In this document: in pieces, positions 4,580-63,500 of the stretch
Numbering within the stretch: position 1 is the first letter of the stretch
Layout: each line of letters opens with the position of its first letter
NCBI GenBank assembly: GCA_024404495.1
Contig: JAKSPT010000002.1
Location: 41,410-105,409, forward strand
DNA length: 64,000 bases
Source of the DNA: Lachnospiraceae bacterium
GTDB lineage: Bacteria; Bacillota; Clostridia; Oscillospirales; CAG-272
Reading direction: 5' to 3'
Translations under genes and position numbers: made by a program
Notes under the pieces: model-generated
The model's input: the letters and a program-made list of their open reading frames with translations, nothing else
Told to the model about the DNA's origin: nothing
Databases searched by the model: none

Positions 4580-4656
4580 GGCGGAATAGCTCAGTTGGCT
4601 AGAGCATTCGGTTCATACCCGACAGGTCGTTGGTTCAAATCCGACTTCCGCTACCA
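4580..4656 (+). tRNA. tRNA-Met (anticodon CAT); elongator, initiator or Ile2-lysidine identity not resolvable by eye
   Basis: Cloverleaf folded by hand: acceptor GGCGGAA/TTCCGCT, D arm GCTC-AGTTGGCTA-GAGC, anticodon loop TTCATAC, T arm GTTGG-TTCAAAT-CCGAC, encoded CCA. Confidence 0.8.
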
Positions 4657-4731
4657 GGCCCGTTGGTCAAGCGGTTAAGACACGGCCCTTTCACGGCTGT
4701 AACATGGGTTCGATTCCCGTACGGGTCACCA
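4657..4731 (+). tRNA. tRNA-Glu (anticodon TTC)
   Basis: Matches the classic Firmicutes tRNA-Glu: GGCCCGTTGGTCAAGCGGTTAAGACA...CCTTTCACGG...GGGTTCGATTCCCGTACGGGTCACCA; anticodon loop CTTTCAC; encoded CCA. Confidence 0.85.
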
Positions 4732-4735
4732 CAAA

Positions 4736-4775
4736 AAAGAAAGCATCGCAAAAGCGATGCTTTCTTTTTTGTGTT
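4736..4775 (+). terminator. Rho-independent terminator of the tRNA operon
   Basis: Hairpin aaagcatcgc-aaaa-gcgatgcttt followed by cttttttgtg. Confidence 0.75.
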
Positions 4776-4965
4776 ACCCCGTACCAAACGTCGCCCCACC
4801 GCAGCCTCCGTTCGCAGGCGAGCGGGGGCTGCGATTGGGTTCGTATCCGCGAGCGGAGGCGTCTGCAAGCTCGCTTGCAAGCGCCGAGCGAGCAGGGATC
4901 CGGAGCGTGCCGCTCCGATTCCCGTATTTGCCATCACATAAACGAAGGGCTTAATACCGCAGCCG

Positions 4966-6258
4966 TTATTCCGCGTCCAGCTGCTTCGCAAACCAGTTTA
5001 CGACGGCAGGCTCGGATTCCGGAGAGGTCTGGGGGATCAGGTACCAATGAGCGGCACCGGCGACCTCGTACCCGCCGACTTCAAATTCTTCGGGCGGCGC
5101 AAGATAGCCGTTTACCGAGTTGGAATAGCCGCATACGAAAACGGTTGCCGGGTCAAAGCCCGCTTTGACGAAAAGGGCTTCGATTTTGTCGCCCGGCAGG
5201 GTCAGAAGCTCGAAAGGAACGAACGCAAAGGCAAATTCCTTTCCGATTTTTATCATCTGCATCGGTACGGTCAGGCTGAAATCTCCGCCGCTTTCGGCAA
5301 TTTCTAGCATTTTTCTCGTCCACTGCAGCTCACGGAGATAATAGTGCTTGTTCCAATCGGAGAAGGGAAGGCTCAGATATCTATCCTCCCATTCCTTTTT
5401 CTGCCTTTTCAGTTCTGCCGTGTCATCCATCCGCATCATCGGAACTTTCAGCAGCTCGTAACGGATATCCGGCACCCCCTCCGCACGGCGCGTTATGCCT
5501 TCTCCGGAGCGGGCAAAGGCTTCGACCGGGATCGAAAGCTGTCTGCCGACGGCGGCGATCTGTTCGTCAAGGGTCTCCCCGATGACAACGGGATTGATAT
5601 CCGCGCCTCTGCCCTGGAAGAAGAAATACGGAACCTCATCGGTGGAGAGACGGTTCAGCTCCGCGAGCCAGTCAGCGGAGACCGTGAAATCGGTGTTCAG
5701 AACCGCGTGGCACGCAGCATTCGACAGAACCGCGCGCAGGTTTCCGTTTCCGTCTGTGAAGGCGGCAGCCTTGATCCTCCGGTCGATGAAGGGTCTGCCG
5801 CGCCGGTTCAGGGAGGCGGTTAGCTCGCTTTCAAGGATCGCAAAGCGGAAGGAACCTTCGGTCAGCCTTCCGATGGCGCGGAGCGCGGCACGCCCCATTT
5901 GCTCTCCGGCATAGGCAAAATAATCTACATTGATCGGCATTTCGGCAAGGATGCCCGCCTGCGGCGCAGCGTGGGTATGGACGAAGACAAGCGAGATCCG
6001 CTCGCGCGGAACGCCGGTCAAGGCAGTGATCTGATCGGTAACGAGCCGGTAAAGCGGGGGATTCAGACCGATCAGGTCCACCGCATAGATCAGAGAAAGC
6101 GTCCCCTCCGATTCCATTGCCATGACCTTGGCGTGAAGGTCGTCGTGTATGCCGGTCGCGGGGGTGAGGCGGTGTCCGTAACCGTCAAGAACGATCGTGG
6201 AAAGATCGGGCGGCGTGATGATTTCATCGGCAAAGCCAAAGCGGATAGTGCTCATCAT
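4966..6258 (-). CDS. Hypothetical protein (430 aa), possibly a hydrolase
   Basis: Clean ORF with an AAGGAG RBS before the ATG at 6258; no confidently recognised motif. Confidence 0.5.
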   Translation of the reverse strand: MMSTIRFGFADEIITPPDLSTIVLDGYGHRLTPATGIHDDLHAKVMAMESEGTLSLIYAVDLIGLNPPLYRLVTDQITALTGVPRERISLVFVHTHAAPQAGILAEMPINVDYFAYAGEQMGRAALRAIGRLTEGSFRFAILESELTASLNRRGRPFIDRRIKAAAFTDGNGNLRAVLSNAACHAVLNTDFTVSADWLAELNRLSTDEVPYFFFQGRGADINPVVIGETLDEQIAAVGRQLSIPVEAFARSGEGITRRAEGVPDIRYELLKVPMMRMDDTAELKRQKKEWEDRYLSLPFSDWNKHYYLRELQWTRKMLEIAESGGDFSLTVPMQMIKIGKEFAFAFVPFELLTLPGDKIEALFVKAGFDPATVFVCGYSNSVNGYLAPPEEFEVGGYEVAGAAHWYLIPQTSPESEPAVVNWFAKQLDAE

Positions 6259-12066: not shown

Positions 12067-12198
12067 GCCAAAGCCTCTCTTTCGGATCCTTTTTTTCCAT
12101 TATAATCCCGAAATGTGAACGATTCTGCCTTCCGTTCCGACCGACGAAGCGTAATCGGCCGCGTTTTTTCTTTTCGGGAACGGCTTTTGAAAACCGAC

Positions 12199-12227
12199 TT
12201 GTCAAAAGCCGTCGGATATGATACAAT
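12199..12227 (+). promoter_or_regulatory. Sigma70-type promoter for the hydrolase gene
   Basis: TTGTCA (12199-12204), 17-nt spacer, TACAAT (12222-12227). Confidence 0.55.
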
Positions 12228-12300
12228 AATGGAAGAAAAAGGGGCATCCGTGCGTTTTCCGCCGCTTTTTTACGGATTTCACAAAAAGGAGAAACCGAAA

Positions 12301-14535
12301 ATGACCGGGAAAAGAGTGCTTTTCATCGTATTGACCGCGGTGATCCTGATCGCTTCGCTGTCGTGGTACGCGCAGCCCGCCGCCGCTGCCGGGGCGTATC
12401 CGACCGACTTTGACAGTATGCTTGCGCGCGCGGAGGCGATTATCAATTATAAGTGGACCCCGCCCGTCGATATCGCGACGTGGAACAACAGCACCTACAA
12501 CGGCGCCAAGGTCTTCCGCAAGGGCTCAACGGTGACCGGAATGCCCTATTCTCTGTTCGTGTACGAGCTGGGGTTTGATTCCCTGCTGTCTCTGGCACAG
12601 TATAAGAAGATCGTGAACTCCAACTACTCGACCACGAAATACTGCGTCAGCGTCAGCGCCGACAGGACCGGTCCCGCCTACGGCTCCTGCTGCGCCACCT
12701 TCGTCAGCGAGGTGTTCGGCGGCGACTTCATGAACGGGGACAATCCGAGATACGACAGCGTCCTCAAAATCAAGGAGAGCCCGTATTCCTATACCTTTAC
12801 CGGAACGGTCGACAAGATCAAGCCGGGCGACGCGCTCAGCACGTCGAACAACGGGCACATCATCTGGGTGGGCGGCGTTTCTTCGACCTCTCTGACGATC
12901 TACGAGCAGACCCCTCCCGTCGCGAGAAAACGGACGGTGAGCAAAACCTCCGTTGACGGGAGCGGATATCTGATCTACAACGGTTCGACTTATAAAACCG
13001 TCTCGCGCCCTGCCGGAAACGGCGGGAATACCGACTGCGAATGCTCGACCGCCTATGCCGGGACCTACGTCTGCACGACGAACAGCGGCGATCTGAATAT
13101 CCGCGCCGGGCACGGCTCCTCCTACGGGATCGTGGGCGTCATTCCTCACGGCGCGGAGGTCACCGTGACGAAGGCGAGCGGATCGGGCACCGGCGATTGG
13201 GCGCACGTCTCCTATAACGGCATCACGGGCTGCGCCTCGATGAAATATCTGACGAAGAAAAACGACGCGCCGGCAGACTGCGGCTGCTCGGATTCCTACG
13301 CCGGGACCTACGTCTGCACGACGAGCAGCGAGGATCTGAACATCCGCGCAGGGCACGGCTCCTCCTATCCAATCGTCGGCACCATCCCGCGCGGCGCGGT
13401 CGTCACCGTGACGAAGGCGAGCGGGGAAGGGAGCGGGAACTGGGCGCACGTCACCTATAACGGCGTTTCCGGGTTCGCGTCGATGGGCTATCTGAAGAAG
13501 CAGAGCGGCGCGGTCTGCGAGCATCGGTTTACCGCGGCGGCAGAAAAGCCGGAGGCGCTGAAATCGGCGGGGAACTGCCGCGACGGGGCGGTATATTACT
13601 ATTCCTGCTCTGTCTGCGGCGCCGTGGAAAAGAACGATTCCAACACCTTTACCGGAGGCAAAAACCCCTCCGTCCACGTCGGCGGCACGAAAGTCGTCAA
13701 CGCGAAGGAAGCCGACCACAAGAATCAAACCGACGGATATACCGGGGACACGGAATGCCTCGGATGCGGCGCGATCCTCTCCCGGGGCACCGTGATCCCG
13801 TCCGGAGCGCACGTTTCCTCGGGGGAGAACGCGGCGACCTGCTGCAAAAAAGCGGTCTGCGATCTCTGCGGCGAAGAGTACGGAGACCTTCTGCCGCACG
13901 AATACGGAACCGGGTATTCGTCCGACGCCTCCGGGCACTGGCACGCCTGTACGACCGGGGGCTGCACGGAAAAGAGCGGCTTTGAAGCCCATACGCCCGA
14001 CCGCGCCGGGGACGACGGAAGCGCGGTCCGGTGCGGCGTTTGCGGCTTCGTCATCAGGGAAGGGCACGAACACGATCTGAAGAAAACCGACGCCGTTCCG
14101 CCCTCCTGCGAAAAAAGCGGGACCGAAGCCTGTTGGACCTGCGCCGGATGCGGAAAGCTGTTTGCCGACGAAGCGGGAACCGAAGAGATCGGCGCGCCCG
14201 TTACGGTCCCCGCCCTCGGACACGATTTCGGCGAATGGAAAGTGACGAAGGAAGCGACCGCAGACGAAACGGGGCTTTCGGAGCGCGTCTGCTCCCGCTG
14301 CTCCGAAAAGGAGACCGGGATCCTTCCGAAAAAGGAAGCGCCCGTCACGGAGGAAACGACCCTCCCGGGCGACACCTCCGCGCCGGAGGGCACCGGGGAG
14401 AGCGGCGCGAAGAAAGAGGACGAAAGCCGTCTTCCCGGCTGGGTCCTGCCCTCGGCGATCGGCGCTGCCGTTCTCGCCGCGATCGCGATCACGGCCGCCG
14501 TGCTGACCGGAAAGAAAAAGGCAAAGAAGCGATAA
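12301..14535 (+). CDS. Secreted, membrane-anchored cell-wall hydrolase-like protein: CHAP/NlpC-like amidase domain, two SH3b domains, a Cys-rich CxxC repeat region and a C-terminal TM anchor
   Basis: Signal peptide MTGKRVLFIVLTAVILIASLSWYAQPAAAAGA; CHAP-like YGSCCATFVSEVFG...GHIIWVGG; two SH3b repeats (LNIRAGHGSSY..VGVIPHGAEVTVT...WAHVSYNG); repeated CxxC motifs; hydrophobic C-terminus followed by KKKAKKR. Start trimmed to 12301 (AAGGAGA RBS). Confidence 0.6.
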   Translation: MTGKRVLFIVLTAVILIASLSWYAQPAAAAGAYPTDFDSMLARAEAIINYKWTPPVDIATWNNSTYNGAKVFRKGSTVTGMPYSLFVYELGFDSLLSLAQYKKIVNSNYSTTKYCVSVSADRTGPAYGSCCATFVSEVFGGDFMNGDNPRYDSVLKIKESPYSYTFTGTVDKIKPGDALSTSNNGHIIWVGGVSSTSLTIYEQTPPVARKRTVSKTSVDGSGYLIYNGSTYKTVSRPAGNGGNTDCECSTAYAGTYVCTTNSGDLNIRAGHGSSYGIVGVIPHGAEVTVTKASGSGTGDWAHVSYNGITGCASMKYLTKKNDAPADCGCSDSYAGTYVCTTSSEDLNIRAGHGSSYPIVGTIPRGAVVTVTKASGEGSGNWAHVTYNGVSGFASMGYLKKQSGAVCEHRFTAAAEKPEALKSAGNCRDGAVYYYSCSVCGAVEKNDSNTFTGGKNPSVHVGGTKVVNAKEADHKNQTDGYTGDTECLGCGAILSRGTVIPSGAHVSSGENAATCCKKAVCDLCGEEYGDLLPHEYGTGYSSDASGHWHACTTGGCTEKSGFEAHTPDRAGDDGSAVRCGVCGFVIREGHEHDLKKTDAVPPSCEKSGTEACWTCAGCGKLFADEAGTEEIGAPVTVPALGHDFGEWKVTKEATADETGLSERVCSRCSEKETGILPKKEAPVTEETTLPGDTSAPEGTGESGAKKEDESRLPGWVLPSAIGAAVLAAIAITAAVLTGKKKAKKR

Positions 14536-17467: not shown

Positions 17468-17602
17468 GGCTCTTCATATTTTTTGGTGTGTGAAGGTTTA
17501 TTGTTCTCCTTGATGCCGAAGCATAGCCTGCCGCGCAGAAGGTTCCGGAAGTCCCGCCCTACGAGGCGAATCTTCGGTCAACGGACGAGAATGAGGAAAA
17601 AG
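17468..17602 (-). repeat. Copy E of the GC-hairpin terminal-inverted-repeat element family: internally deleted, inverted orientation
   Basis: The rc of 17468-17602 matches the left arm (cctcattctcgtccgttgaccgaag...cgtagggcggga) fused directly to the right arm (cttccggaaccttctgcgcggcaggctatgcttcggcatcaaggagaacaataaaccttcacacaccaaaaaatatgaagagcc) of copy C (53830-54166). Confidence 0.8.
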
Positions 17603-17720
17603 CACCGATATTTATGAAGAACCAATTTTTATGCGGGTGCGTCATATTTCCTCTTCGGTTATCGACTTATAGGGTGAACGGCAAAGCGCGCACGCCGTTC
17701 GGACGAAAGAAAGGATCATC

Positions 17721-28437: not shown

Positions 28438-28720
28438 ACCGGACAATCGTCTTCGGGCGCGTCCGGAGCGTAAACGGAACACGTCGTAGGGCGGGGCCTT
28501 GTGTCCCGCCGCGGAATAATCAGCGAAAGGCGGAGTAGAAACCGACGTGCGTCACCGTGCGAAATACGGAGAAATGACGATTCCGGAAACGGCGGGTTCC
28601 GAATGAAAAATGACACGCAGCGGTTTTTTATGTCCGTTCGATCTTCTTCCCGCGGCGGGACACAAGGCCCCGCCCTACGACATCGCCCGAAGAGAAGCGG
28701 ACGAGCACGAAGAAGGGCGG
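28438..28720 (+). repeat. Copy A of the GC-hairpin terminal-inverted-repeat element family
   Basis: Left repeat cgtagggcggggccttgtgtcccgccgcg at 28485-28513, right repeat (its rc) at 28651-28679; the 137-bp internal segment is ~80% identical to copy C; the outer arms also form inverted repeats (cgtcttcgggcg versus cgcccgaagag). Confidence 0.85.
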
Positions 28721-28778
28721 TCATGGGCGAGTGACGGAACGCTTTTGCAATTCATTTCATTCCGCAGGAGGTGAGAAA

Positions 28779-36467: not shown

Positions 36468-37289
36468 TTGAAATCGTTCAAAATCGGACAAAGTATTGAA
36501 AAAAGCCTGTACCCGATCGAAAGCAGACTGGAAGAAATGAACCGGGAAAGAAAAGAAGGAGAGAGAAAGCTCGCGGAGATCTGCGTCCCTGCTCTCGTTT
36601 CCGCGCTTCTGACCGCCGCCGTTTCCGACCGGCTGCTGTACGTCGATCCCATCAAGCCGTCGCTTGCGTTTAATTGGTACGAGAAGATCGTTTCCAACGG
36701 CTTCGGTATGATCGCCGTTTATCTTCTGACCTTTGCGGTGATCGCGCTTGCCGTTTTCGGCGTCATCCGGCTGATCCGCTTCTTCCTCGAAAAAAAGAGC
36801 GGAACGAAAGCCGCGCCCGCGAAAGACGAATACGCGGACAGATTCTATAAGATCATCATCCCGGAGATCATCACCGGAAGCGGAATGTTCGAGAAGGCGT
36901 ACGAGATCGAATGCGGAAACGTTGACGCCGAGGAGCTGACAGAAGGCGCGTCTGCTGCCGCGATGAACGCGGAGAATATCCGTCTGGAGGAGATCCCGAC
37001 GAAGGATATCAACCGCAAGGCGATGCTGTATTATTACGAGGCGCTTTATCATTTCCGCTCGATCATCCCCGAGCTTGAAACGATCATCTATTCCGAAGAC
37101 GCCCTGAACGCCGATCCCGTCGAGCGTTACCGCCGTATCGGGCAGGACGCCGTGACGGATGCGCTCCTCATCTGCCGCCACTGCGTGAACGAGATCTGCA
37201 AGCGCACCGAGGACGCGCACGAGGAGGAGATCATCGAGGCTTACGGCGACTACCTCCGCAAGGTCAGCGAGGTACAGTTCGACCGCTGA
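36468..37289 (+). CDS. Hypothetical membrane protein (273 aa), TTG start
   Basis: GGAGGA RBS 8 nt before the TTG; two TM helices; the C-terminal ~105 aa are duplicated immediately downstream. Confidence 0.5.
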   Translation: MKSFKIGQSIEKSLYPIESRLEEMNRERKEGERKLAEICVPALVSALLTAAVSDRLLYVDPIKPSLAFNWYEKIVSNGFGMIAVYLLTFAVIALAVFGVIRLIRFFLEKKSGTKAAPAKDEYADRFYKIIIPEIITGSGMFEKAYEIECGNVDAEELTEGASAAAMNAENIRLEEIPTKDINRKAMLYYYEALYHFRSIIPELETIIYSEDALNADPVERYRRIGQDAVTDALLICRHCVNEICKRTEDAHEEEIIEAYGDYLRKVSEVQFDR

Positions 37290-37630
37290 CAGACGGCGCG
37301 TCTGCTGCCGCGATGAACGCGGAGGACATCCGGCTGGAGGAGATCCCGACGAAGGATATCAACCGCAAGGCGATGTTGTATTATTACGAGGCGCTTTATC
37401 ACTTCCGCTCGATCATCCCCGATTTTGAAACGATCATCTTTTCGGAGGATGCCGACGACGCCGATCCGGTCGAGCGTTACCGCCGTATCGGGCAGGACGC
37501 CGTGATGACCGCGCTTCTCGCCTGCCGCCACTGCGTGAACGAGATCTGCAAGCGCACCGAGGACGCGCACGAGGAGGACGTGATCGCCGCCTACGGCGAG
37601 TTCCTGCGCACGGTCAGCGAGAAAAAATAA
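36946..37630 (+). repeat. Tandem direct duplication (~340 bp x2, ~90% identity)
   Basis: 36946-37289 versus 37290-37630 (gcgtctgctgccgcgatgaacgcggag...cgcaccgaggacgcgcacgaggagga repeated). Confidence 0.85.
37313..37630 (+). CDS. Duplicated C-terminal module (105 aa) of the upstream gene; independent small gene or gene fragment
   Basis: ~88% amino-acid identity to residues 169-273 of the 36468-37289 product (MNAEDIRLEEIPTKDINRKAMLYYYEALYHFRSIIP...). Confidence 0.4.
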   Translation: MNAEDIRLEEIPTKDINRKAMLYYYEALYHFRSIIPDFETIIFSEDADDADPVERYRRIGQDAVMTALLACRHCVNEICKRTEDAHEEDVIAAYGEFLRTVSEKK

Positions 37631-45053: not shown

Positions 45054-45082
45054 ATTATACAGCACGGAAATCCCGTTGTCAA
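45054..45082 (-). promoter_or_regulatory. Consensus sigma70 promoter of the aroC operon (minus strand)
   Basis: The rc reads TTGACA (45082-45077), 17-nt spacer, TATAAT (45059-45054), ~85 nt upstream of aroC. Confidence 0.7.
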
Positions 45083-45224
45083 GAATAAGGTTCTTCATTC
45101 ATATCGGGGTTTTGGAACGGCGGGGGTAAGAACAACCGGACCGAAAAGAAAAGCGGACGCGCCCGGAGAGGCTTTGTTCTCTTCCGTTTCCTTTCTCTCA
45201 ACGGGACACCTCATACAGATCAGC

Positions 45225-45705
45225 TTCGGGTTCTGCTTTCCTCGTTCTCGCCCGCGTGACTTCGGGCGATGTCGTAGGGCGGGGCCTTGTGTCCCGCCGC
45301 GACAGGAGAGCGAGCGGCAGGGCAGAGAGCGTAATACGTCACGAGCCGGGATACGAAGAGCGGTTCTTTTCCGGAATAATGATTGGTTCTATGGGTTGAT
45401 TATGATTCCTTTGATTTATGCCGCCGCAGCGGCTGAATTCGGGATCTGAAAGGGAAGAGCGATTTCTCCGTATCAAGCACGGTGACGTACCCTGCTCACC
45501 ACTTCGCCTTTTGCCTGATTTATCGCGGCGGGACACAAGGCCCCGCCCTACGACGCATTCCGTTTGCGCTTCGGACGCGCTCGAAGACGGGCGTCAGCGC
45601 GCTACGACGCGTTCCGTTTGCGCTCCGGACGCGCTCGAAGGGCGTCGTCTGAAGAGAAGCAGACGCGGAAGAAGGCAATCAATCTTCACGCACCAAAAAA
45701 GCAGA
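45225..45705 (+). repeat. Copy B of the GC-hairpin terminal-inverted-repeat element family; internal segment inverted relative to copy D
   Basis: Left repeat 45273-45301, right repeat 45524-45552. The internal 222 bp equal the rc of copy D's internal segment plus a ~95-bp insertion bounded by gaagagcg direct repeats. The right arm carries a tandem ~55-bp duplication (ctacgacgcattccgtttgcgcttcggacgcgctcgaag... twice). Confidence 0.85.
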
Positions 45706-45716
45706 AAGAACCAATA

Positions 45717-45750
45717 AAAAAGAACCGTTTCCGGTCGGAAACGGTTCGGA
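45717..45750 (-). terminator. Rho-independent terminator of the DUF3737-like gene
   Basis: The rc reads aaccgtttccg-accg-gaaacggtt followed by cttttttatt. Confidence 0.7.
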
Positions 45751-53778: not shown

Positions 53779-53829
53779 ACAAATAAGTCGGGATGCCGCA
53801 TTGTGCGGCATCCCGTTTTTTTAGGTTCT

Positions 53830-54166
53830 TCATATATATTGGTGTTTTATCCTCGTTCTCGTCCGTTGACCGAAGGTCCGCCTCGTAGGGCGGGGCCTTG
53901 TGTCCCGCCGCGGGAAGATAAGCAATAGGCGAAGCGGAAGCCGATGCGCGTCACTGTGCGAAATACGGAGAAAAGACGGTTCTTGAAACGTCGGATTCCG
54001 AATGCAAAGTGACGCGCAATGCTTTGTTTACGTCCGTTCGGACTTCTTCCCGCGGCGGGACACAAGGCCCCGCCCTACGAGGCTTCCGGAACCTTCTGCG
54101 CGGCAGGCTATGCTTCGGCATCAAGGAGAACAATAAACCTTCACACACCAAATAATATGAAGAGCC
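53830..54166 (+). repeat. Copy C of the GC-hairpin terminal-inverted-repeat element family (most canonical copy)
   Basis: Left repeat 53884-53912, right repeat 54051-54079; the outer arms are also inverted (ttcttcatatatattggtg versus caccaaataatatgaagag); lies between convergent gene ends. Confidence 0.85.
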
Positions 54167-55953: not shown

Positions 55954-56901
55954 TTAATCGGGGTAGACCGAGGAGAAACCGTAATATTCCTCCATCGTTC
56001 CCGCCTCCGTGATGGCGCGGCAAAGCTCGGGCGAGCCGATATAGCGGACGTGCCACGGCTCGTACATATAGCCGGTGACGCTCTCCTTGCCCTTCGGATA
56101 GCGGATGATGAAGCCGTAATCGCAGCAGTGCGCGGCGAGCCAGATGCCTTCCTTCGTCGTTTCAAAGACGGTGTGGCAGTCGATGACGTCGATCGCAAGT
56201 CCGGTCTCATGCTCCGAGTGACCGGGGCGCGCGGAGAAGCGGTCAGCCTGTGCCTTGCCGTGGCTCTGGATATAGGAATTGTAGAGCCATTCCTGCGTCG
56301 GGTAATCGCGGAAGCTCGAAACGCTGTAAAAGCGGATCCCTTCCTTCGCGGCGTCGGCGCACATCCGGTTGAACGCCGCTCTCGTTTCGGGCGTGACCGG
56401 ATAAGGATCGCCGTCGCGTTCGTAATCGAGCGCCGGGTAGTAGTCGGCGGGGAGGGAATAGGTCTTGTTCGCGATGACCTGCCCGTCGATATAGGTGACG
56501 CCGTTCTTGACCTCGATCGGGTAGCCTTTGGAGGTATATCCGGTGATCACGGCGCCCGGAACCTTCGCGGGCTTTTCAAAGGGCTCGGTTTCGGGTTCCG
56601 TTTCGGGCACCGTCTCGGGCTCCGTTTCCGGCACCGTCTCGGGCTCCGTTTCCGGGACCGTTTCGGGTTCGGTTTCGGGAATTGTCTCGGGTTCCGTTTC
56701 GGGAATTGTCTCGGGTTCCGTTTCGGGAACGGTCTCCGGAGCCGTTTCGGGCTCGGTTTCCGGGTCGGTGACGGGGGCGGTTTCCGGTTTCGTTTCCCGC
56801 AGGGATTCATACGGAGGATCGGGGCGCTTTGAGACCCACGCGCAGGAGGAAAGAAGCGCGGTCAGGAGAAGAACGAGGGTGATTTTCAGACTTGATTTCA
56901 T
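55954..56901 (-). CDS. M15-family D-alanyl-D-alanine carboxypeptidase (VanY-like) lipoprotein with a (PETE)n linker
   Basis: SEHETGLAIDV and EPWHVRY motifs; lipobox LLSSCAW; ~20 tandem ETEP/ETVP repeats. Confidence 0.75.
   Translation of the reverse strand: MKSSLKITLVLLLTALLSSCAWVSKRPDPPYESLRETKPETAPVTDPETEPETAPETVPETEPETIPETEPETIPETEPETVPETEPETVPETEPETVPETEPETEPFEKPAKVPGAVITGYTSKGYPIEVKNGVTYIDGQVIANKTYSLPADYYPALDYERDGDPYPVTPETRAAFNRMCADAAKEGIRFYSVSSFRDYPTQEWLYNSYIQSHGKAQADRFSARPGHSEHETGLAIDVIDCHTVFETTKEGIWLAAHCCDYGFIIRYPKGKESVTGYMYEPWHVRYIGSPELCRAITEAGTMEEYYGFSSVYPD
56560..56810. repeat. Tandem 12-nt coding repeats (ETEP/ETVP linker)
   Basis: ccgtttcgggaa/ttgtctcgggtt-type units repeated ~20 times. 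Confidence 0.8.
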
Positions 56902-56905
56902 TTTT

Positions 56906-58273
56906 TCAGAGCTCGGTGACGTTGTTTTCAAGAAGGACGGAGACGTTTTCTTTGCCGGTGATCGCGCGGGTGCTGCCGACCGTGACGATATCCTTTGCGT
57001 CAAGGAGATCGACAGAGCCTGTCGGATGGACGGCAAGCAGCGTGCCGGAGCGCTTTACGCCCTTGTCCTTCGCGGAAAAGACGTTTTTGAGGATCAGATT
57101 GCCGATCTCGCCGTAGACCGAGAAGACCTCCATGTTTTCGGAGTCTCCGTTTTCGAGAACGGTCACGCCGTCGATGATGAGATTCCGGATCTTATGGGTC
57201 TTTCCGCCCGCCGCGACGTAGGCGTCGATCGTGCGCGGCGTCGTGGAATGGAACGGGAAGCCGAATTCGCCGACCGCGCGGGCGTCGATCGGGTATTCGT
57301 GGCGGATGTTCTTCAGCGTGAGGCAGCGGATATCGCCGCCGACCGAGAAGAGCATCGGCGGACGGTAGTCGTAGTTCGGCGCGGTGTGGGTGAGGCTGAC
57401 GTTTTCGATGAAGATATCACCGAAATTTCCCGCCGTTTCGTCCGGGAACCACGAGTTGATGTAGAACCCGAAGGAACGGTAGGAGCCCGAGACGTTGCGG
57501 ATCGTGACGCGGTCGCAGAGACCGGTGCCGCGCGAAAGGATGCGGATCGCCTGATCGGCGTCGTCGAGGAAGACGCCGTCAACGAGCACGTCGGTGATCG
57601 AAGAAACGCCGTCGCCCTCGTCGGGACCGATGTTCATGAAGTCGTCGCCGACCTTGCCGCCGACGTTGCGGATGGTCAGAAATTCGCCGGGACCCCAGAA
57701 GTGGAAGCCGTCCTGATTCTGCGCCTGCATCCGGTGGGGCAGATCGACCCACGAATCCTCGATGGTGCAGTTGCGGAAATTGGTGAGCATAAAGGCGTAG
57801 GTGCGGAAATCGACGATGCGGATGCCGCGGACGAGGAGATCCTCAACGCCGCAGAATTCGATCGGAACGGTGCCGTGACGGCCGTTGAAGGTGTTCGCGC
57901 CGTTCATCCACGGGTCCTCGGGATAGTCGTGGATCTGATCCGGGCAGTTGCCGTTATAGGTGCCGCCGATCAGAGAGATGTTTCTCGCGGTGCGTACCTT
58001 GCGGTCCCAGATCTCGTTGCGGATCAGCGGATGGTTGGACTGCCCCTTCTGGAAGAAGCCGCAGTCGGAGGTGAGACATTCAATGGTCGTATTGGAATGG
58101 ACGACGAGCTCGGAAACGAGCGCCGCACCGTCCATCACGAGGCGGACGCCGCCCGAACGCTTCGCTTCGTCGAGCGCGTTCTGAATTTCTTTCGTTACGT
58201 CGGTGCCGCCGCCCGTGCGGACGTCGGAGTCGAGGACGGCGATATCACTTGCGAGAATGGTTTTGATCGTCAT
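56906..58273 (-). CDS. Right-handed parallel beta-helix (pectate-lyase-fold) glycoside-hydrolase-like protein
   Basis: 455 aa with repeated NxxI beta-helix rungs (NISLIGGTY, NCTIEDSW, NVSGSY, NVSLTH); 5 nt from the downstream M15 gene. Confidence 0.5.
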   Translation of the reverse strand: MTIKTILASDIAVLDSDVRTGGGTDVTKEIQNALDEAKRSGGVRLVMDGAALVSELVVHSNTTIECLTSDCGFFQKGQSNHPLIRNEIWDRKVRTARNISLIGGTYNGNCPDQIHDYPEDPWMNGANTFNGRHGTVPIEFCGVEDLLVRGIRIVDFRTYAFMLTNFRNCTIEDSWVDLPHRMQAQNQDGFHFWGPGEFLTIRNVGGKVGDDFMNIGPDEGDGVSSITDVLVDGVFLDDADQAIRILSRGTGLCDRVTIRNVSGSYRSFGFYINSWFPDETAGNFGDIFIENVSLTHTAPNYDYRPPMLFSVGGDIRCLTLKNIRHEYPIDARAVGEFGFPFHSTTPRTIDAYVAAGGKTHKIRNLIIDGVTVLENGDSENMEVFSVYGEIGNLILKNVFSAKDKGVKRSGTLLAVHPTGSVDLLDAKDIVTVGSTRAITGKENVSVLLENNVTEL

Positions 58274-63189: not shown

Positions 63190-63500
63190 TTTCCTCGTTC
63201 TCGTCCGCGTTTCTTCGGGCGGTGCCGTAGGGCGGGGCCTTGTGTCCCGCCGCGATAAAAAAGGCAAAAGGCGAAGCGGGAAGCGAGGCGCGTCACCGTA
63301 CTTGATACGGAGAAATCGCTCTTCGTATCCCGGTTCGTGACGTATTACGCTCTCTGCCCCGCCTCCCGCTCTCCTGCCGCGGCGGGACACGAGGCCCCGC
63401 CCTACGATGTATTCCCAAAGTGAAGCGGACGCGCTCGAAGGGCGTCACCTGAAGAGAACCGGACAATAAAGACGATAAATCTTCACACGCCCAAAGAGGG
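63190..63500 (+). repeat. Copy D of the GC-hairpin terminal-inverted-repeat element family
   Basis: Left repeat 63226-63254, right repeat 63378-63406; the internal segment is itself a nested palindrome (gcgtcac...gatacgg...ccgtatc-like symmetry) and is the rc of copy B's internal segment. Confidence 0.85.

Follow-up and report, generated by a model that had tools for sequence, protein, structure and literature searches.

The stretch of DNA analysed here, called the window below, is 64 kb long and comes from a metagenome-assembled genome (MAG). Its approximately 50 ORFs, examined with Pfam, encode shikimate pathway enzymes, IMPDH, Rnf subunits, glycoside hydrolases, sigma factors and other housekeeping functions. 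Five copies of a repetitive element, which we designate A to E, lie between these genes, and their parts are listed in Table 1. Based on GC3-based gene calls, copies C and D are located between convergent genes, whereas the two neighbours of B are on the minus strand and those of A and E on the plus strand; B adjoins the upstream region of aroC, and A lies upstream of a WYL gene. A coding role for the elements was rejected, since the ORFs that overlap them lack the GC3 bias of real genes. Our comparison is based on these five copies together with eleven orthologous or neighbouring loci (L029 to L039).

A pattern search with the 25-mer GTAGGGCGGGGCCTTGTGTCCCGCC yielded eight occurrences in the window, arranged as four inverted pairs (A, 28486/28678; B, 45274/45551; C, 53885/54078; D, 63227/63405), and no match to the pattern in 100 shuffles. 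The proposal of a first-pass annotation of this DNA that one repeat type serves several loci is thereby borne out. All eight arms are intergenic and seven of them have an identical sequence. A repeat search showed perfect inverted repeats of 32 nt in B, 39 nt in C and 29 nt in D, and in all four copies the bounded segment lies between inverted repeats of 29-39 nt that are 97-100% complementary. The segments between the arms, hereafter called modules or spacers, measure 123-222 nt and are partly palindromic.

Table 1. Coordinates of the repeat elements and associated features in the 64-kb window.
Feature	Position	Strand	Description
Composite B	45089..45712	+	ISL3-like MITE with ends GGTTCTTCATTCATAT... 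/ ...GCAGAAAGAACC, carrying REP dimer and module; between DUF3737 terminator and aroC promoter
B left 8-bp target-site duplication AAGAATAA	45081..45088	.	Right copy AATAAAAA at 45713-45720; empty site of relatives AATAATAA
B left REP-like arm, GTC-GTAG-GGCGGGGCCTTGTGTCCCGCC-GCGA	45271..45302	+	32 nt, 100% complementary to 45523-45554
B right REP-like arm	45523..45554	-	Exact reverse complement of left arm
B module (spacer)	45303..45522	-	Opposite to the orientation shared by the modules of A, C and D
99-nt segment	45355..45453	.	In B and L036, not in D; 8-nt direct repeat GAAGAGCG at borders
Two tandem 54-nt units, B right MITE arm	45548..45655	+	Each begins CTACGACGC
Composite D	63190..63500	+	MITE arms around REP dimer and module; left TIR missing, right TIR degenerate; between convergent genes
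D left REP-like arm	63226..63254	+	From inverted repeat and pattern search
D right REP-like arm	63378..63406	-	One substitution relative to the other arms
D module (spacer)	63255..63377	+	Orientation as in A and C modules
Composite A	28449..28721	-	Truncated MITE arms, reversed; REP arms 28483-28514 and 28650-28681; module 28515-28649 on + strand
Composite C	53824..54166	+	Complete MITE with TIR GGTTCTTCATATATATTGGTG / CACCAAATAATATGAAGAGCC, flanked by TTTTTTTA / TTTTTTAA
C REP arms	53880-53918, 54045-54083		Module 53919-54044; module-to-arm orientation as in D
Copy E	17468..17623	-	C-type MITE without REP dimer; GTAGGGCGGG alone kept at junction; flanked by AAAAATT direct repeats
Native aroC promoter	45054..45082	-	TTGACA-17-TATAAT, 12/12; outside composite B

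Copies B and D show the peculiar relationship from which this analysis started. The first-pass annotation had claimed that the internal segment of B is the reverse complement of that of D while the outer arms keep their orientation, and both parts of this description hold. When the arms were excluded, the B spacer aligned with the reverse complement of the whole D spacer with 108 of 122 identities (88.5%) and a single gap of 99 nt, located in D; the local score was 71 for the reverse complement versus 13 for the forward orientation, with a maximum of 14.4 in 300 shuffles. With the arms included, the repeat search returned 94 nt at 93% and 99 nt at 90% complementarity. The flanks of B and D, on the other hand, are collinear in direct orientation (37/43 identities on the left, 42/52 on the right). 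The extra 99 nt of B, bordered by the 8-nt direct repeats GAAGAGCG, were either inserted in B or lost from D by slippage.

Given that the source is a metagenome-assembled genome and that the family is repetitive, one could ask whether the orientation of a segment between inverted repeats was simply mis-resolved in the assembly. We regard such an artefact as extremely improbable. The 29-32 nt arms are shorter than reads and than typical final k-mers, so that reads span the arm-spacer junctions, and the B and D spacers differ at 11.5% of their positions, which identifies them as distinct loci and not as collapsed copies. Moreover, L036, an independent assembly from another sample, carries composite B in the same orientation.

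In an alignment of all four modules, those of A, C and D lie on the plus strand and that of B on the minus strand, while among their outer arms only those of A are reversed, the other three pairs being direct. Relative to its outer arms, the module thus has the same orientation in A and B, opposite to that shared by C and D. The copies group differently depending on the character considered: A and C versus B and D by module type, A, B and D versus C and E by arm subtype, and A and B versus C and D by module-to-arm orientation. All four combinations of module type and orientation are present among A to D. The family is therefore a mosaic, and no fewer than two flips or exchanges are needed to account for these four copies; since A and C share their module type but not their arm type, the module must have been exchanged between arm subtypes at least once. 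The 99-nt extra segment of B, the orientation contrast between A and C and the fifth, module-less arm copy E all go beyond what the first-pass annotation had described.

What are the inverted repeats? Each arm carries GTAG directly 5′ of a GC-rich hairpin consisting of GGCGGG, a 9-nt loop and CCCGCC. In a scan with one genome per species, the same 25-mer was found in 28 contigs, from MAGs of uncultured Oscillospiraceae, Faecousia, Flemingiibacterium, Acutalibacteraceae, 'Eubacteriales' and 'Clostridia', the closest repeat-bearing genomes being Oscillospirales, and the REP sequences are identical across several genera. At most of the 28 loci, the 25-mer serves as left arm in a head-to-head dimer (GTAG ... 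CTAC) with a spacer of a few tens of nt, and the partner arm has a slightly different loop, GTAGGGCGGGGGCTTGCTCCCGCC or ...GGTTTACT...; further arrangements in the related loci are singletons, a single tail-to-tail pair and head-to-tail placement next to other GTAG hairpins. GTAG stands immediately 5′ of 72 of the 424 GC-rich perfect hairpins in these loci, followed by AAAA with 19, an excess that is partly due to the choice of loci. About two dozen GTAG hairpins are other variants with covarying stems (GCGG/CCGC, GAGG/CCTC, ACCG/CGGT). Judged from these sequence features, the 29-32 nt inverted repeats are GTAG-tagged REP-like hairpins that are widespread in Oscillospirales MAGs.

The window arms differ by one substitution in 200 nt, while the spacers are approximately 11-37% divergent and the outer arms approximately 14-22%. 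Because the REP arms are far better conserved than either, something sequence-specific must maintain them, candidates being a REP-associated transposase, a recombinase and some structural role. A REP-associated tyrosine transposase (RAYT, Y1 HUH) was found neither among the window ORFs nor among 10 REP-flanked ORFs of related loci, all of which are housekeeping or of unknown function (0 Y1 transposases). We also considered a REP pair 2.6 kb apart in L026 as the possible flanks of a RAYT gene and rejected it, as the enclosed genes are ordinary. A spacer of L022 that looks reversed next to that of L020 was likewise dismissed as an example of flipping elsewhere, because flanks and spacer are reversed together and the arm types differ by two loop bases. 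Metagenome scans gave 0 matches, both for the two-arm pattern with a spacer of 120-150 nt and for the conserved module core CGTCACYGTRCNNRATACGGAGAAA, and a full-text literature search with the repeat sequence returned unrelated eukaryotic or aptamer matches only.

The DNA outside the REP arms turned out to have a structure of its own. Terminal inverted repeats (TIRs) were found in copies B (GGTTCTTCATTCATAT / GCAGAAAGAACC), C and E (both GGTTCTTCAT... / ...ATGAAGAGCC, the ends listed for C in Table 1 being shared by E), giving a consensus end GGYTCTTCATA; the target duplication is AT-rich and 8 bp long. The arms of copy E are 90-97% identical to those of C, and both copies are bordered by AT-rich direct repeats of 7-8 nt. 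ISL3 elements end in GGCTCTTCG with 8-nt direct repeats, as for example in a Microcystis MITE (PMC11448079). The apparently fixed flanks can be recognised by these ends as the two arms of a small non-coding MITE with ISL3-type termini. No transposase domain was detected by Pfam among the approximately 50 window ORFs, and searches of plasmid and phage collections gave no match to composites B or C. As single-stranded DNA, composite C is predicted to fold end to end into a hairpin of -113 kcal/mol (z = -15), and composite D also folds as a long hairpin (z = -7.2). We examined whether these structures correspond to a known structured RNA and rejected this possibility: at gathering thresholds, Rfam found two tRNAs and nothing else over the window, permissive scans gave nothing for B, and those for D gave far-sub-threshold matches to plant miRNA hairpins on both strands, as expected of generic long hairpins.

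Comparison with relatives showed that the composites are recent arrivals. The site of composite B is empty in L029, L030, L031 and L039, whose DUF3737 genes are 83-97% identical to that of the window, as revealed by alignment in the first three and by a 153-nt gap in gene coordinates in L039. In these four relatives the spacer between DUF3737 and aroC is about 150 bp long and consists of the terminator GAACCGTTTCCGACCGGAAACGGTTC, TTTATTATT, followed by the promoter TTGACA-17-TATAAT. At this site the window is longer by about 632 bp, corresponding to the element and an 8-bp duplication (AAGAATAA / AATAAAAA, as opposed to AATAATAA in the empty site). Similarly, at the D site of L032, L033 and L035 (92-95% protein identity) the convergent genes are about 100 bp apart, compared with 432 bp in the window; this absence was seen by alignment in L032 and L033 and as a short gap in gene coordinates in L035. 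L034 (97.6% identity) carries a separate insertion of the same MITE family, in the opposite orientation; it follows immediately on the first terminator, at a distance of about 60 bp from the D site. These patterns show that the whole composite behaves as insertion DNA at both B and D and not as a conserved switch.

Only one of the relatives compared carries composite B. L036 (MAG GCA_045629025.1), whose DUF3737 is 97.6% identical to that of the window, has it in the same position; the two versions are 97% identical at the nucleotide level and differ by a few substitutions, including one in a REP arm, and the right arm of the L036 copy contains 43 extra nt in the 54-nt tandem repeat, equivalent to a partial third unit. 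The module orientation is the same in both genomes, a comparison of one orthologous pair of consensus assemblies, and no orthologous pair with opposite module orientations was found among the relatives. The first-pass annotation had itself held that a fixed orientation among related strains would speak against active inversion; the agreement between L036 and the window points in that direction, within the scope of two genomes.

The family is also unstable in other ways. At locus A of L037 (97.1% identity), the MITE arm continues as far as GTCGTAGGGCGG and then gives way to unique downstream sequence; about 226 bp are missing, with which the second MITE arm, the REP dimer and the spacer have been lost. 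The missing segment is bounded in the window by direct repeats AGGGCGG (28488-28494 and 28714-28720) at the base of the hairpin. Since window copy A has both arms in the standard arrangement, the L037 state is a deletion derivative. Copy E, in which only GTAGGGCGGG is kept, is probably a similar deletion remnant. We had considered copy E as a clean empty site for REP insertion, an idea that was abandoned because its junction keeps GTAGGGCGGG and because the A/L037 pair shows that such remnants arise by deletion. At locus E, the MITE of L038 (98.5% identity) shares the left junction but has a different interior of about 425 bp that lacks the GTAG REP dimer; the downstream gene also differs from that of the window, so this is a chimeric MITE at a synteny break.

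These observations bear on a first alternative for the reversed module, according to which the REP dimer and its spacer form a mobile REPIN-like unit, mobilised by a REP-associated Y1 transposase or a similar enzyme, that was inserted separately into the centres of MITEs without any inversion. The quasi-palindromic target being symmetric, such a unit could land in either orientation. REP dimers do occur in other nests: elsewhere the same dimer is centred in at least three unrelated outer palindromic repeats, and GTAG/CGTC REP dimers inserted within longer palindromes have been described (Di Nocera et al. 2013, PMC3733652). The related modules of A and C in different arm subtypes imply one or more events in which the module changed its arms, by movement or exchange, and MITE copies without a GTAG REP dimer exist (copy E and L038). 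However, the two 'empty' versions are not clean, as both keep GTAGGGCGG(G), and at locus A the L037 state reflects deletion. B and D share both their arm and their module subtype at similar divergence, which fits a common composite ancestor and one flip, and no RAYT or Y1 transposase was encountered in the window or among the REP-flanked ORFs sampled. We find separate insertion unlikely.

The second alternative is the one put forward in the first-pass annotation, which had interpreted the B/D difference as the signature of an invertase-mediated switch. Invertase-controlled segments are well known, such as fimS with FimB/FimE, hix with Hin and the Mpi-controlled promoters of Bacteroides, and can be detected with PhaseFinder. 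In programmed phase variation of this kind, a trans-acting serine or tyrosine invertase would recognise the 29-32 nt repeats and flip modules reversibly at many loci. The perfect inverted repeats with fixed flanks at four loci would be in line with such a system, as would the much better conservation of the repeats compared with the DNA between or around them and the layout of each arm, in which two half-sites surround an asymmetric centre (GGCGGG-9 nt-CCCGCC); the presence of all four combinations of module type and orientation implies that flipping or exchange has recurred. Several lines of evidence nevertheless make programmed switching improbable. The arms belong to a class of REP-like hairpins that elsewhere are mostly singletons or dimers with a partner differing in its central loop, as is expected of a REP and not of a recombination site. 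The flanks are those of a MITE with TIRs and an 8-bp duplication, and the composites are recent insertions that are missing from the orthologous B and D sites of close relatives. The orientation at B is shared with the sister MAG L036, and the module content differs among copies.

A simple consensus scan revealed no sigma-70-like site inside the B or D module; the only strong promoter it detected was the native aroC promoter, which lies outside B and is also preserved in relatives without the insertion. The -35 hexamer of this promoter starts 6 bp away from the end of the MITE and shares 2 nt with the beginning of the left duplication copy. The native promoter downstream of the inserted B is intact. 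C and D, for their part, lie between convergent genes. The first-pass annotation had suggested looking for a co-occurring invertase gene, and Pfam identified no recombinase or invertase among the approximately 50 ORFs of the 64-kb window. Of the original proposal, a past inversion between the repeats remains a plausible origin of the B/D difference, while the invertase mechanism is left without support.

A more far-reaching version would combine mobility with switching: the REP-bounded modules could form a 'portable inverton', actively and reversibly flipped at many MITE copies throughout the genome by a trans-acting recombinase or by a REP-associated transposase acting as an invertase. We consider this quite improbable. 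If modules were actively flipped, the family would represent a mobile, self-spreading carrier of invertible DNA in uncultured gut Clostridia, which would be new.

The explanation that we favor, as a reasonably probable one, is that the B/D flip is a fixed structural difference between paralogous copies, which arose when the symmetric REP arms occasionally served for inversion or exchange driven by homology. Each copy is a nest, with an outer ISL3-type MITE, a head-to-head REP pair at its centre and a spacer module within the pair, and the whole nest can fold into one long hairpin. As the REP arms are perfect reverse complements of each other, homology-driven events that use them could set the module either way without displacing the MITE arms, which are asymmetric. 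Such an event might be intramolecular recombination, a template switch when the hairpin is replicated, or an interaction with another copy through gene conversion or crossover, among others. The flip would then be a by-product of the symmetry of the element and not a regulated switch operated by an invertase. That B and D share arm and module subtypes at similar divergence (81-86% identity in the arms, 88.5% in the spacer) is consistent with one common composite ancestor followed by a single flip. The end states of such events are seen in the paralogous copies, and the homology-driven route between them is the step that we infer.

Processes of this type have precedents. Inversion by strand switching between inverted repeats, independent of recA, was reportedly observed in E. 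coli plasmids by Bi and Liu in 1996, and small inversions of hairpin loops recur in chloroplast spacers. Two observations weigh against a homology-driven origin: two or more flips or exchanges in a set of four copies suggest a process that is not very rare and that a dedicated enzyme would also explain, and the strong conservation of the arms implies that something sequence-specific maintains them.

Our results carry a caution for the discovery of invertons, given that nested foldback repeats can mimic a 'flipped core with fixed flanks' between paralogous copies without any evidence of a switch. They document GTAG-tagged REP-like hairpins in several genera of uncultured Oscillospirales and indicate that elements of the REP type are both abundant and active in gut Clostridia. 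These elements are now reshaping intergenic regions among genomes with 92-99% protein identity, as seen from insertion DNA that ends 6 bp short of a promoter, from sequence lost at the base of hairpins, from tandem repeats that vary in number and from a break in synteny.

The anatomy described here can be compared with four known systems. It shares with the fimS, hix and Mpi invertible segments a short DNA bounded by inverted repeats, the occurrence of both orientations against fixed flanks, and a single repeat type that is common to several loci. In contrast to those segments, the modules of the window show no promoter or coding cargo and have no recombinase nearby, the locus is not conserved in relatives, the one orthologous pair compared shows no orientation polymorphism, and the repeats derive from a REP family that is also found singly. 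The element also resembles non-programmed inversions at inverted repeats in E. coli plasmids and chloroplast genomes, where a spacer between short perfect repeats flips repeatedly within fixed flanks without a dedicated enzyme, and where stable hairpins and deletions at the hairpin base also occur; the spacer in our element is longer than those of typical chloroplast loop inversions, and the likeness is drawn by analogy.

The outer part of the nest corresponds to ISL3-family MITEs (PMC11448079) in its GGYTCTTCATA ends, its 8-bp AT-rich target duplication, its small non-coding size, its presence/absence polymorphism among close relatives and its insertion beside terminators. It differs from them in a highly mosaic interior that holds a REP dimer, and no autonomous ISL3 element with matching ends was present in the sequence examined. 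The inner part matches the GTAG-tagged REP, BIME and REPIN sequences (PMC3733652; Nunvar et al. 2010, PMC2817692), with which it has in common the GTAG 5′ of a short GC-rich hairpin, the extragenic location, the occurrence as singletons, head-to-head dimers (GTAG outside) and tail-to-tail dimers, the ability of the dimers to fold as one long hairpin, the residence of some families within longer palindromic repeats, and the many stem variants side by side in related genomes. The REP literature that we found makes no mention of Firmicutes, whereas the host of our element belongs to the uncultured Clostridia/Oscillospirales. The window dimers are also perfect homodimers, with spacers of 123-222 nt as opposed to the 20-100 nt reported, and all four lie inside one MITE family. 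We are dealing with known kinds of elements, GTAG-tagged REP dimers nested inside an ISL3-like MITE, from an under-described lineage.

The composites of the window, in which ISL3-like MITE arms enclose a REP dimer and spacer module, vary at the orthologous sites of close relatives (see table). At the locus of composite D, a member of the same MITE family has inserted independently in the 97.6%-identical relative L034. It follows immediately on the first of the terminators behind the 497-aa gene, at a distance of about 60 bp from the D site, and the contig ends within it. At the locus of E, a MITE lacking the REP dimer, the element found in the 98.5%-identical relative L038 has a different interior, with a hairpin GGGAGGGCTCCCTTGTGTAAAGGGAGCTCCC and no GTAG REP; a matching target duplication is absent from this element, and the downstream gene, unlike that of the window, encodes an MFS transporter. 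Synteny is broken at this point, and the L038 element is a chimeric MITE. At the locus of A, the deletion in the relative L037 has removed the REP dimer, the module and one MITE arm.

The module of composite B contains a 99-nt segment that is shared by the sister MAG L036 and missing from D. This difference reflects either a small insertion accompanied by an 8-bp duplication or slippage that deleted the segment from D. One portion of it, AGATCCCGAAT, is similar to the hairpin at the centre of the A and C modules. The MITE arm on the right side of B holds a 54-nt tandem repeat, which is present as two units in the window, while L036 has 43 additional nt corresponding to a partial third unit; the length of this repeat therefore differs among close relatives.

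Repeats were also observed within ORFs of the window. The 12-nt-period repeat lies in the N-terminal portion of ORF 55954-57036, a VanY-domain D-Ala-D-Ala carboxypeptidase, where it codes for a linker of the form (P-E-T-E/V/I-P-E-T)n (...PETEPETVPETEPETIPETEP...), and the 243-nt duplication corresponds to the repeated bacterial SH3_3 domains of an 806-aa ORF (12115-14535). The paired 300-nt repeats, which look like a recent partial gene duplication, cover ORFs 36468-37289 and 37313-37630, neither of which has a Pfam match. Elsewhere, a hairpin overlapping the end of a tRNA-Glu gene is probably the terminator of a tRNA operon.

In other MAGs, the same REP dimer, a head-to-head pair of GTAG-tagged hairpins, is also enclosed centrally by outer palindromic repeats, which belong to at least three unrelated families. 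In the first of these families, the non-identical REP arms are placed alike relative to the outer arms at all seven loci (7/7).

Repeat and hairpin features of the window and of related loci
Feature	Location	Details
54-nt tandem repeat, B right arm	window 45548-45655; L036 about 5990-6140	unit start CTACGACGC
99-nt segment, B module	window 45355-45453	edges, 8-nt direct repeat GAAGAGCG
MITE, independent insertion	L034 2500-2589	orientation opposite to D
MITE, orthologous E site	L038 2137-2517	about 425 bp; left junction shared with window
Deletion, about 226 bp	L037 6100-6170 vs window 28488-28720	between 7-nt direct repeats AGGGCGG, hairpin base
Outer palindromic family 1 around REP dimer	L001-L028	...TTTGTGTTCCC / GGGAACACTTT...
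Outer palindromic family 2 around REP dimer	L001-L028	CATTGGGGACGGTTC...
Outer palindromic family 3 around REP dimer	L001-L028	GCAAAATGAC...GTCATTTTGC
Adjacent tRNA-Met and tRNA-Glu genes, then hairpin	window 4580-4784	
Hairpin after tRNA pair	window 4719-4784	31-nt, 90%-complementary
12-nt-period tandem repeat	window 56540-56830	17 registers; minus strand
300-nt direct repeats	window 36935-37234 and 37285-37584	91% identical, 350 nt apart
243-nt tandem duplication	window 13017-13502	78% identity
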